Origin: Escherichia phage vB_EcoM_FJ1
DNA length: 64,000 nucleotides
Reading direction: 5' to 3' (one strand)
Sequence record: MZ170040.1
Shown here: positions 3,296-4,690 of the stretch, one piece after another
How positions within the stretch are numbered: position 1 is the first letter of the stretch
Layout: the number at the start of each line of letters is the position of its first letter
Translations under genes and position numbers: made by a program
Notes under the pieces: generated by a model
Told to the model about the DNA's origin: nothing
Database searches by the model: none
The model's input: only the letters and a program-made list of their open reading frames with translations

Positions 3296-3332
3296 AGATA
3301 ATACTATCACAAAGGAACCATACTGTAAACAA
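3296..3332 (-). promoter_or_regulatory. T4 early-type promoter (-35 GTTTAC, 18-nt spacer, -10 TAGTAT)
   Basis: minus strand GTTTAC at 3325..3330 and TAGTAT at 3301..3306, followed by SD and ATG at 3273. Confidence 0.5.
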
Positions 3333-3349
3333 CTTTATGCAATCTTTGG

Positions 3350-3378
3350 AAAATAAAAAAGGACTCCCGAAGGAGTCC
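3350..3378 (-). terminator. rho-independent terminator
   Basis: GGACTCC-CGAA-GGAGTCC hairpin followed on the minus strand by T-run; same hairpin recurs at 57744..57761. Confidence 0.6.
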
Positions 3379-3383
3379 TCAAC

Positions 3384-3602
3384 TTATGCTTTCTGCTTAC
3401 CAAAACGAGAAGCATCATCTCGAAGAACCGCACGTGCTCGGCGCATGATCTTCTCAACAGTTTGATTGATACGAGAGTTCGACCCACGCTTGTAGCCAGC
3501 GCGTTTAGAATCACCAACTTTCTTTTCAACTGCTTTCTTTGCTTTAGCTTGTTTTGCCATTATAAATTCTCTTTTAAATGAAAATGCAGGACTTATTGGC
3601 AT
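3384..3602 (-). CDS. small lysine-rich basic protein; start ambiguous (3602 or internal Met at 3560)
   Basis: 72-aa ORF, MAKQAKAKKAVEKKVGDSKRAGYKRG...; followed by terminator. Confidence 0.45.
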   Translation of the reverse strand: MPISPAFSFKREFIMAKQAKAKKAVEKKVGDSKRAGYKRGSNSRINQTVEKIMRRARAVLRDDASRFGKQKA

Positions 3603-3958
3603 TGCCTGCGCAAGCCCTCAAGGGGAACATAGGTTTTTGGATATTTAACGACCAGGATAACCATAAACCCGTCATCATACCTTATAGCTCTTATCTGTTG
3701 CACACCGTTAGCTTAAAGGTTCCGGGTTCGATTTCTCGAGGATAAGATATATACTGATGGATATATAGGCCTTGAGGCGTACTCCCGATTGGCCATCACC
3801 TCGGGGTAGCATGCACTTGCCGCTATAAGAATAACATTCAAGAGGTACACCGTAAAACTGCCGGGGTCTTAAAACTATAATGATTCGCAAATCATTAATC
3901 AGACAGTTCGACGGCTCCTCGATTTTAGCTCACACTAAGGCAGTGAATCTCCAGTAAA

Positions 3959-4207
3959 TTACTTCAGTGTTACCACAAAGTGACGAACTGCTTTTCGTGC
4001 AGCAGAAGCCAGAGGCTTAGCATATTTAAGTTCATCTTTTTCCTGAAGCTCAGCAGCTAATGCAGTTTGAGCAGGATTCAGATGTTTGAAATAACGCAGG
4101 ATTTCAAGAGCTTCGGCTTCAACATCAATAGATGCGCCATAGTTTTCGTGACCATTATTCCATGCGTTTCGTTGCAGTTCAAGAGCGTGTTGTAATTGTT
4201 TAATCAT
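3959..4207 (-). CDS. rIII: lysis inhibition accessory protein rIII
   Basis: 82 aa, MIKQLQHALELQRNAWNNGHENYGASIDVEAEALEILRYFKH...; size and position (downstream of 31) as in T4. Confidence 0.8.
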   Translation of the reverse strand: MIKQLQHALELQRNAWNNGHENYGASIDVEAEALEILRYFKHLNPAQTALAAELQEKDELKYAKPLASAARKAVRHFVVTLK

Positions 4208-4354
4208 TTAAAAATTCTCGTTAGAGATTAAAACTCGGTAGTCACGTTCTTCTGAATTTCATCTTCTTTCGACAGATCTCTCAGTTGTAGACTACCACAT
4301 AGAATTGTTCGGTTAACTTATTATTCCGACACCCAATTCATATTATTATTTATA

Positions 4355-4690
4355 TCACTTATAAAGACACGGAATAGCTTTATAGTGACAGGTAACAAAT
4401 TTTTGTTTAATTTCTTTTGGCTGCTTAAGACCCAGAGCTACAAAAGGATGCGGAACATTTCGAATTTGACCAACTGGGAGAGAAGTCAAATCACCAACTT
4501 CGCAGAAACCTTCAGGAACATCAGGACCGACAGAGTGAATTACACACAGTTCAGGAACTTCACCTTGAACACGTTTACCGATAATAAGTCCTGATTCTGT
4601 AACTTCTTCATCACCGGCTTGTGCAGGTTCAGAAACTAAAATAACATATTCACCGACAGCACGAATTGGTAGCTGTTGTACTTCAGACAT
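4355..4690 (-). CDS. 31: gp31 co-chaperonin (GroES-like) for major capsid protein folding
   Basis: 111 aa, [40 protein letters not shown]...; matches T4 gp31 length and sequence. Confidence 0.85.

Follow-up and report, generated by a model that had tools for sequence, protein, structure and literature searches.

A covarying structured RNA domain in the rIII–30.9 spacer of T4-like phages

The untranslated spacer between genes rIII and 30.9 of Escherichia phage vB_EcoM_FJ1 (record MZ170040.1), analyzed here in a stretch of 64,000 nucleotides (nt) referred to as the window, carries on its minus strand a 152-nt domain (3679..3830, delimited by a covariance-model match) that forms a four-way junction of the arms P1, PI, P5, and P2. 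This domain, named element A, is almost certainly a functional structured RNA; it is restricted to T4-like phages infecting Enterobacterales, is more strongly constrained than the neighboring genes, and appears to constitute a new RNA family, belonging to none so far catalogued. A sequence-only reading had proposed that a non-coding island at 3603..3958 might hold a small structured RNA, a proposal that is now strongly supported by covariation. The island was borne out as well, and is slightly larger than had been thought: because the start codon of 30.9 is the ATG at position 3560 (MAKQAK...), in agreement with T4 (NP_049823) and every homologue, the non-coding gap extends over 3561..3958. 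The longest open reading frame (ORF) of 30.9 (3384..3602, minus strand, 72 amino acids) starts at an upstream ATG and is annotated in this way in some records, but this start was ruled out by T4 and the homologues, in which the protein has 58 amino acids.

The fold was derived from 18 distinct sequences representing at least eight genera and aligned with MAFFT, a structure-blind procedure. RNAalifold analysis of this alignment yielded 42 nested pairs; compensatory changes were seen at 21 of these, and 98.3% of the cells were found to be paired. The covariation score was 0.318, compared with 0.149 in shuffled alignments, and this level was reached by none of 500 shuffles; as a control, sliding the partners by 1–3 columns caused pairing to fall to 26–42%. 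With 37 distinct sequences, 98.9% of cells were paired and 32 of the 42 pairs showed compensatory changes, in an alignment that was fitted to the covariance model and so leans towards structure. In a strand test, pairing amounted to 98.3% for the minus strand and 92.9% for the plus strand. As it is the 43 G.U cells that lower pairing on the plus strand, the functional RNA is assigned to the minus strand—that is, to the sense of the messenger RNA (mRNA).

The four-way junction is perfect, with zero linker bases. The domain is closed by P1, whose 5′ strand CUUAUAGC (3822..3829) pairs with GCUAUAAG (3681..3688); variants of this helix include AUAGC/GCUAU, UAAAC/GUUUA, CAUAC/GUAUG, ACAC/GUGU, and AUUAG/CUAAU, and all five modelled pairs have changed on both sides in the 37-sequence set. 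Arm PI (3768..3821) is composed of GGC/GCC, an internal loop, UAC/GUA, CCCGA/UCGGG, an AA bulge, and the hairpin GGU-GAUG-GCC, with its terminal loop at 3794..3797. The internal loop reads AAGUGCAU(GC)/(CGC)CUCAAG, and its bases AAGNGCAU, opposite CUCAAG, are invariant, the most diverged copies included. P5 (3748..3767) is the hairpin UAUAUAU-CCAUCA-GUAUAUA, with the loop CAUC at 3756..3759. Arm P2 (3689..3747) contains a three-way junction and encloses P3, P4, the P4 loop, and a joining strand. Its helix P2, in which UCUUAUC (3741..3747) pairs with GAUAAGA (3689..3695), corresponds to a 7-base-pair (bp) inverted repeat pointed out in the sequence-only reading; the repeat is a real helix, fully paired in 18 of 18 sequences and with compensatory changes at three positions. 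P3 (3728..3739) is the hairpin UCGA-GAAA-UCGA, P4 joins 3723..3727 with 3702..3707, the P4 loop GAACCUUUAAGCUAA (3708..3722; 15 nt) is invariant, and the joining strand GCAACA occupies 3696..3701. The three-way junction holds an invariant core of ~30 nt (ACCCGGAACCUUUAAGCUAACGGUGUGCAACAG), and the 20-mer GCUAAYGGUGUGCAACAGAU shows no variation among Tevenvirinae copies. The invariant unpaired bases of element A are concentrated in two places, a pattern suggestive of a site where a specific partner binds.

The P5 loop CAUC is complementary to the PI loop GAUG, forming a loop–loop kiss. The two loops are complementary in every lineage despite differing in sequence, and five classes are distinguished: UAUG/CAUA in Serratia-type phages, CAAUGA/UCAUUG in EcS1 and fHe-Yen9-01, UGUAUU/AAUACA in JC221, UGCAUU/AAUGCA in Slopekvirus, and GAUG/CAUC, the class of the window. 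In the alignments, a 6-bp kiss was found to go with a 6-bp P5 stem and a 4-bp kiss with an 8-bp stem. Such a constant combined length fits an intramolecular kiss in which P5, the kiss itself, and the hairpin of PI are stacked as a single column, which would stand beside the remainder of PI. This length compensation, read by eye, suggests that the kiss is intramolecular; an intermolecular kiss, giving multimers of element A, is a conceivable alternative.

The comparison with the rIII-downstream region of T4 that the sequence-only reading had recommended showed that T4 has an otherwise similar spacer without ~154 nt, corresponding to 3676..3830 of the window. The piece missing in T4 is 93–96% identical in T4-like phages of Klebsiella, Enterobacter, Citrobacter, and Edwardsiella, while the flanks barely align. 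In the comparison with a Klebsiella phage, the core of element A is 95.6% identical, compared with 73% for rIII of the same pair and 48% for its third codon positions. Element A is present in 410 phage records (Straboviridae), in 19 of 45 IMG/VR rIII loci, and in 14 metagenome contigs, all T4-like; a further metagenome pattern match (L089) proved to be a chance match within a coding region. Of 185,579 genomes of bacterial and archaeal species, none matched the invariant 20-mer, and a blastn search of 5,426 E. coli genomes with element A gave no match either; an origin from, or mimicry of, E. coli sequence was rejected on these two results. The covariance model detected a single copy of element A in the window, and no module of the island is repeated elsewhere in these 64 kb.

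The presence of a 154-bp insertion relative to T4 raises the question of whether a miniature mobile element or a homing remnant is involved, one in which the terminal inverted repeat CTTATAGC...GCTATAAG would function as DNA. Presence and absence indeed differ among close relatives with sharp boundaries, the terminal inverted repeat of 8 bp exists, and alternative cassettes occur in the same slot. However, the terminal repeat covaries as an RNA helix, with G.U tolerated on one strand only, and RNA-type compensatory changes are found throughout the interior; moreover, there is a single copy per genome region, with no target-site duplication and no bacterial copies. A DNA-level or mobile element is accordingly regarded as highly improbable. 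Nothing was found in support of a replication or recombination element, which the sequence-only reading had also considered.

A plus-strand element resembling a transfer RNA (tRNA), based on a T-loop, or a small protein gene can, as far as sequence analysis goes, practically be dismissed. The strings quoted in favor of such features are all present—GGTTCGATT at 3725..3733, TCTTATC at 3689..3695, GATAAGA at 3741..3747, CCTCAAGG at 3616..3623, and CCTTGAGG at 3770..3777—and GGTTCGATT does resemble a T-arm. It is, however, complementary to the 3′ half of P3, a hairpin, together with the beginning of P4, and the structure lies on the other strand; the plus strand pairs worse, and ARAGORN detected no tRNA or transfer-messenger RNA (tmRNA) gene in the whole window. 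With respect to coding, several GenBank records annotate small hypothetical proteins here, but across the central 152 nt every homologue has at least one stop codon in each of the six frames of the two strands, in agreement with the earlier judgment that no convincing ORF exists, and lengths differ by +1 and +9 nt. A conserved short protein gene, named at the outset as the finding that would count against a structured RNA, is therefore absent, no frame being open across homologues. The annotated ORFs vary from record to record and are not conserved, and these small hypothetical proteins are almost certainly false calls. Examples over element A and its neighbors are L001:1909-2091 (U115_218), L003:1521-1625 and 1637-1753, and L095:803-937 (COW86c_228).

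Known RNA families were searched with Rfam 15, whose 4227 models cover riboswitches, ribozymes, RNase P, tmRNA, group I/II introns, and phage RNAs. No family matched the 401-nt interval 3560..3960 at E ≤ 10, and scans of diverged copies of element A gave chance matches only. Reading of the sequences revealed no resemblance to rnaC or rnaD of T4, and word matches to 16S ribosomal RNA (rRNA) noticed by eye were judged to be within chance. In the full-text literature, as far as its incomplete coverage extends, no description of an RNA corresponding to element A was found, and the main text of a large survey of viral RNA motifs does not mention T4-like phages (PMC10690425).

Diverged copies of element A were found in a second genomic context, in Yersinia phage JC221 and the Slopekvirus phages K41P2 and phiEap-3 (79–89 bits, with E-values of 1e-17 to 5e-20 that are rough, the covariance model being home-made). 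These copies are not located beside rIII, but after uvsY.-2, converging on uvsW.1. P1, P2, P3, P5, and the kiss are all altered in sequence in these copies with pairing retained, and the PI internal loop, the P4 helix and loop, and GUGUGCAAC are kept. In all three phages, (T/C)ATAAATA is located 11–14 nt upstream of a conserved GGGCAAG. T4 late transcripts begin ~6 nt downstream of the late-promoter box, and a late start is thus predicted within 0–3 nt of the 5′ end of P1. Beyond element A, the unit contains a hairpin like that of module C (described below), other structured sequence, and then a GC hairpin followed by a U-run; in KP15, the homologous site carries a terminator annotation. No downstream same-strand ORF is annotated in phiEap-3 or K41P2, and the single call in JC221, with a GTG start and 39 amino acids, is probably spurious. 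A copy standing behind a late-promoter consensus and without a downstream gene points to an autonomous non-coding RNA domain, and not to a riboswitch for 30.9.

The surroundings of these copies have further features. Tiny ORFs directly upstream of the Slopekvirus-type element A (L098:1117-1197, L100:1120-1196, and L096:510-655) encode acidic peptides with repeated DERPDL(L/I), for example MIGYGEGITDRDERPDLLESDEHPDF. In the part of the Slopekvirus/JC221 unit beyond element A (L098:1365-1568, L100:1368-1600, and L096:955-1335), the module C-like hairpin is GUACCCGAAAGGGGCUUG, after which comes another conserved, structured segment, GGCGUACUCUUUUGCGCCGUCCGAUGGAGUUUACCUUCGGCGGGGUGAUUGAUAAC...; in Slopekviruses, two to three places per genome are matched by parts of this region.

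Neither a sigma-70-type promoter nor an intrinsic terminator was detected within 3561..3958; a GC-rich hairpin with a U-run of the terminator type is absent there, the terminator of the unit being located at 3359..3380. Upstream of rIII, between it and gene 31, TATAAATA (4347..4354, minus strand) matches the T4 late-promoter consensus. The island is therefore expected to be part of the minus-strand rIII–30.9 message and, going by established knowledge of T4 promoters, a late transcript starting at this box would include the spacer.

One alternative is that element A acts in cis as a riboswitch or protein-binding leader, sensing a ligand or the basic 30.9 protein and controlling translation or transcription of 30.9. 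Element A does have an aptamer-like architecture, with the closing P1 helix and conserved junction and loop bases, and is located upstream of 30.9 in all Tevenvirinae; furthermore, the 3′ strand of P1 adjoins or overlaps module B, another element of the spacer, in several phages, and the ribosome-binding site of 30.9 lies in a conserved UCUCC...GGAAGA hairpin, as read by eye, in most genera outside Tequatrovirus. Against this mechanism, 60–200 nt of other modules, varying in identity and order, separate element A from 30.9, so that it has no constant position directly before that gene; T4 regulates 30.9 without element A; the three diverged copies are at a locus with no same-strand downstream gene; and no alternative pairing with a terminator or ribosome-binding site was found. 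A cis-regulatory switch is thus considered distinctly unlikely.

In most genera outside Tequatrovirus, the hairpin just mentioned, read by eye as UCUCC-AAAAU-GGAAGA and including the ribosome-binding site GGAAGA, is located 10–35 nt before the 30.9 start (for example, in L003, L004, and L022-L025). It suggests that 30.9 is controlled at the level of translation independently of element A.

The spacer as a whole is a mosaic, with the order in the transcript being module D, a segment shared with T4, element A, module B, module C, a last hairpin, and the ribosome-binding site of 30.9. The order differs by genus: D-A-B-C in the window, B-D-A-C in phages of Klebsiella and Edwardsiella, B-A-C in those of Serratia, and C-A-B in Karamvirus and EcS1. 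In close relatives without element A, its slot is either empty, as in T4, or filled with a different module of ~50 nt. The spacer is missing from more distant T4-like phages, in which a 30.9-like ORF comes within ~10 nt after rIII.

This modularity also bears on a role in mRNA stability or processing, in which an array of modules, including element A, would block 3′-to-5′ exonucleases or Rho loading, or direct RNase cleavage, thereby setting rIII/30.9 mRNA levels or yielding stable decay fragments, like arrays in viral 3′ untranslated regions. It would accord with such a role that element A is always accompanied by other small structured modules in a stretch that is not translated, with a gene upstream and a terminator downstream, that the modules shuffle as independent units, and that 30.9 directly follows rIII in the distant phages lacking the spacer. 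However, simple GC hairpins would suffice for this purpose, and the invariant single-stranded loops, the kiss, and 95% identity across genera exceed the needs of a roadblock; in addition, the Slopekvirus-type copies are at a predicted 5′ transcript end and not at a 3′ end. An array function for element A is therefore rated unlikely.

The explanation preferred here, which is regarded as moderately probable when taken as a whole, is that the minus-strand rIII–30.9 spacer consists of independently folding modules, among which element A would be an autonomous, fold-dependent, partner-binding RNA. It would be expressed at least late in infection, within the rIII–30.9 mRNA in Tevenvirinae and, in Slopekvirus-type phages, as the 5′ domain of a late non-coding transcript of its own. 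Its conserved internal loop and the core of its three-way junction would serve to bind a specific partner, which may be a protein, a small molecule, or a further RNA, for example a tRNA. Of the parts of this explanation, autonomy, as opposed to cis-regulation of 30.9, is likely, because the fold is kept in two unrelated loci with any neighboring modules tolerated, and because element A can stand at the start of what is predicted to be a dedicated late non-coding transcript. Partner binding or action as a decoy is put forward tentatively, as a plausible mode of action that falls short of being the probable one; the rest of the probability is divided among a processing or stability element, a cis-regulator, and a ribozyme. 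Since T4 does without it, element A would be dispensable, which suggests an accessory role, as do its patchy distribution and the fact that another cassette takes its place in some phages; this role may lie in host takeover or counter-defense. A bolder version, in which element A would be a late-expressed, compact four-way-junction RNA acting in trans on the host and founding a new functional class of T-even-type RNA, is unlikely. Possible modes for such an RNA are tRNA docking by way of a double T-loop-like core, the sequestering of a host defense protein or signaling molecule, and catalysis as a new ribozyme.

Several points weigh against the preferred explanation. Its very high conservation could partly reflect recent horizontal cassette exchange rather than per-base selection. 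T4 and many close relatives lack it, some with the different 50-nt module in its place, so that any role must be non-essential or replaceable. The aligned sequences are related, and counts of compensatory cells consequently exceed the number of independent events, with at least eight genera contributing changes. Finally, TATAAATA is not enriched across the window as a whole, and the late-promoter reading of the second context is a consensus match in three genomes.

Like element A, the ornate RNAs ROOL, GOLLD, raiA, and those of the HEARO type, which are associated with phages and bacteria, were found by covariation, have complex multi-helix tertiary folds with kissing loops, and are often phage-borne; structures of ROOL, GOLLD, and OLE are available (PMC12286853). 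These RNAs are 200–800 nt in length, whereas element A has 150 nt, is confined to lytic T4-like phages of Enterobacterales, and shows no detectable similarity to them, as judged by the lack of an Rfam match. The packaging RNA (pRNA) of the phi29 family is also phage-encoded and of ~120–170 nt, with a multi-helix junction and two loops of covarying Watson–Crick complementarity. Unlike element A, pRNA has a three-way junction, and its loops pair between molecules into a ring on the connector; element A is not beside packaging genes and has no similarity to pRNA in Rfam scans. The T4 packaging motor is not known to need RNA. The small non-coding RNAs rnaC and rnaD of T4 (species 1 and 2) resemble element A in belonging to T4-like phages and being co-transcribed with other genes, but are located in the tRNA cluster and have tRNA-like T-arms, and element A is absent from T4.

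Among four-way-junction RNAs, the hairpin ribozyme and the yybP-ykoY Mn2+, cobalamin, and lysine riboswitches share with element A a linker-free junction, neighboring arms docked by tertiary contact, and conserved internal-loop bases. The conserved cores of these RNAs are lacking in element A, no covariance match was obtained at E ≤ 10, and the genomic context argues against a classical riboswitch. Element A might also be a self-cleaving RNA of a new kind, or be catalytic in some other way, and cut the rIII–30.9 transcript or mature a late non-coding RNA. Its perfect four-way junction, side-by-side arms, and conserved internal loops recall what is generally known of the natural hairpin ribozyme, self-cleaving ribozymes are common in phage genomes, and the invariant unpaired bases are clustered in two places. 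No Rfam ribozyme model matches, however, the size of 150 nt is above that of most self-cleaving classes, and no cleavage-site signature can be named, making catalysis a very unlikely function.

A further, possible likeness concerns the double T-loop module, which docks the tRNA elbow in RNase P (J11/12-J12/13), the T-box Stem I, and the L1 stalk (PMC3664808, PMC4810234). In the core of element A, the pentads AGCUA (AG..A) and UGCAA (UG..A) flank one helix strand, an arrangement that is the reported sequence signature of this module; UGCAA is invariant, the first base of AGCUA varies (A, U, or G), and the patterns are degenerate. The 10-mer GUGCAACAGA (within 3696..3707 of the window) is common to element A and positions 125–134 of E. 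coli RNase P RNA (rnpB; L102), which probably correspond to the J11/12 strand. The 7-mer positions common to element A and this RNA number 13, compared with 3.1 ± 2.2 in shuffles and none for the plus strand; in a control, 1 of 186 rRNA windows reached 12 shared 7-mers with element A. None of the RNase P models matches, and the words in common stand in different structural contexts. As the contexts differ and rRNA windows come close, this marginal similarity is to be taken as a lead only.

T4-like phages are among the best-studied viruses, yet element A seems to have been overlooked, probably because T4 is without it; in many GenBank records it is labelled as "hypothetical proteins." In the strength of its covariation it compares with established riboswitches and ribozymes, and it occurs in about 400 sequenced phages of the therapeutic type, infecting E. 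coli, Klebsiella, Enterobacter, Shigella, Yersinia, Serratia, and others. A defined fold, tests by compensatory mutation, and the existence of natural relatives without element A, such as T4, make its function directly testable. If element A does act on the host, an RNA player would be added to phage–host conflict, and it would be the first RNA-based accessory or counter-defense factor in T-even-type phages, missed because T4 lost it. The wider spacer, including a pseudoknot that T4 carries, suggests a modular RNA "cassette" region that has so far lacked an explanation.

This pseudoknot candidate is module B (3627..3680, minus strand), which comprises stem 1 (S1), stem 2 (S2), and an A-rich third loop, GUUAAAUAUCCAAAA. 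Module B is present in nearly all rIII–30.9 spacers, including that of T4 (NC_000866, about 130,610..130,660), starts with a near-invariant (G)UAUGAUG, and sits before or after element A depending on the phage. Its strands follow the H-type order S1-5′, S2-5′, S1-3′, S2-3′, and both stems covary (AU/UA/GC and CG/GC/UA in the S1 core; GC/AU and AU/UA/GC in S2). By our own count over 24 sequences, pairing was 84% and 79%, compared with ~69–70% in shuffles, with none of 500 reaching these levels. Assignment of module B as an H-type pseudoknot is accordingly made with moderate confidence from these alignments. The pseudoknot of the T-even gene 32 mRNA is likewise of the H-type and in an untranslated part of a T4 mRNA, but differs in locus and sequence, and nucleates autoregulatory binding of gp32.

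Module C (3611..3628, minus strand) is the local hairpin GUUCCCCUUGAGGGCUUG with a variable loop, and contains CCTCAAGG. It occurs in variants such as CCUC-UUA-GAGG and CCU-UCG-AGG, its loop sequences are free (CUUGA, CUCGA, UUAG, UUCGA, UAUG...), and it is kept in T4, which has no element A. The sequence-only reading had paired CCTCAAGG at 3616 with CCTTGAGG at 3770 over a long range. While the complementary strings do exist, the pairing is not real and shows no covariation: the 3616 copy belongs to the local CCC-loop-GGG hairpin of module C, and the 3770 copy forms part of the internal loop and a helix of PI. Indeed, the long-range pairing was rejected because the loop of module C varies freely and because T4 keeps the 3616 hairpin without its 3770 partner. 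Between module C and the ribosome-binding site of 30.9, the last hairpin, GCAGG-CAAUGCCAAUAAGU-CCUGC, was read from the sequence at 3586..3609 (minus strand).

The 5′ part of the spacer (3831..3958, minus strand) is common to T4 and includes a D-like hairpin (3927..3952) and a perfect 7-bp hairpin, AAUGAUU-UGCG-AAUCAUU (3879..3896). One compensatory variant of the latter, AUCGAUU/AAUCGGU, was noticed by eye in L049. Possible long-range pairs, GAGG/CCUC and ACUGUC/GGCAGU, were also noticed by eye within 3831..3958. The alternative ~50-nt module of the element A slot, CUAUCACGCGUCAGAAAAAGGUUAUCUGUCUAAGUCGUGGUUG, is located between CTTGAATGT and GTATGATGACG in the IMG/VR rIII loci L034, L036, L039-L042, L045, L047, and L049, in what looks like cassette exchange; versions related to it are found elsewhere in the spacers of L051, EcS1, L065, and L077.

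The window belongs to a Tequatrovirus (T4-like coliphage) genome, and its positions 3300..4300 are 100% identical to Escherichia phage vB_EcoM_SP1. The genes around the spacer, which was delimited from the rIII stop codon to the 30.9 start codon by ORFs and the T4 annotation, are all on the minus strand. The upstream gene of the unit, rIII (3959..4207), encodes the lysis-inhibition accessory protein (PHROG 1457, E = 4.7e-44), and the downstream gene, 30.9 (3384..3560), was identified from PHROG 1427, the T4 annotation, and alignment, and encodes a very basic protein of 58 amino acids; Pfam and PHROG searches of both proteins gave no functional clue for 30.9. The intrinsic terminator that closes the rIII/30.9 transcription unit is on the same strand and is annotated as a terminator in related records. 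Gene 31 (4355..4690) was placed from ORFs and annotations. The spacer between gene 31 and rIII (4208..4354), 147 nt in length, is long for this genome and opens with TATAAATA directly after the gene 31 stop codon.

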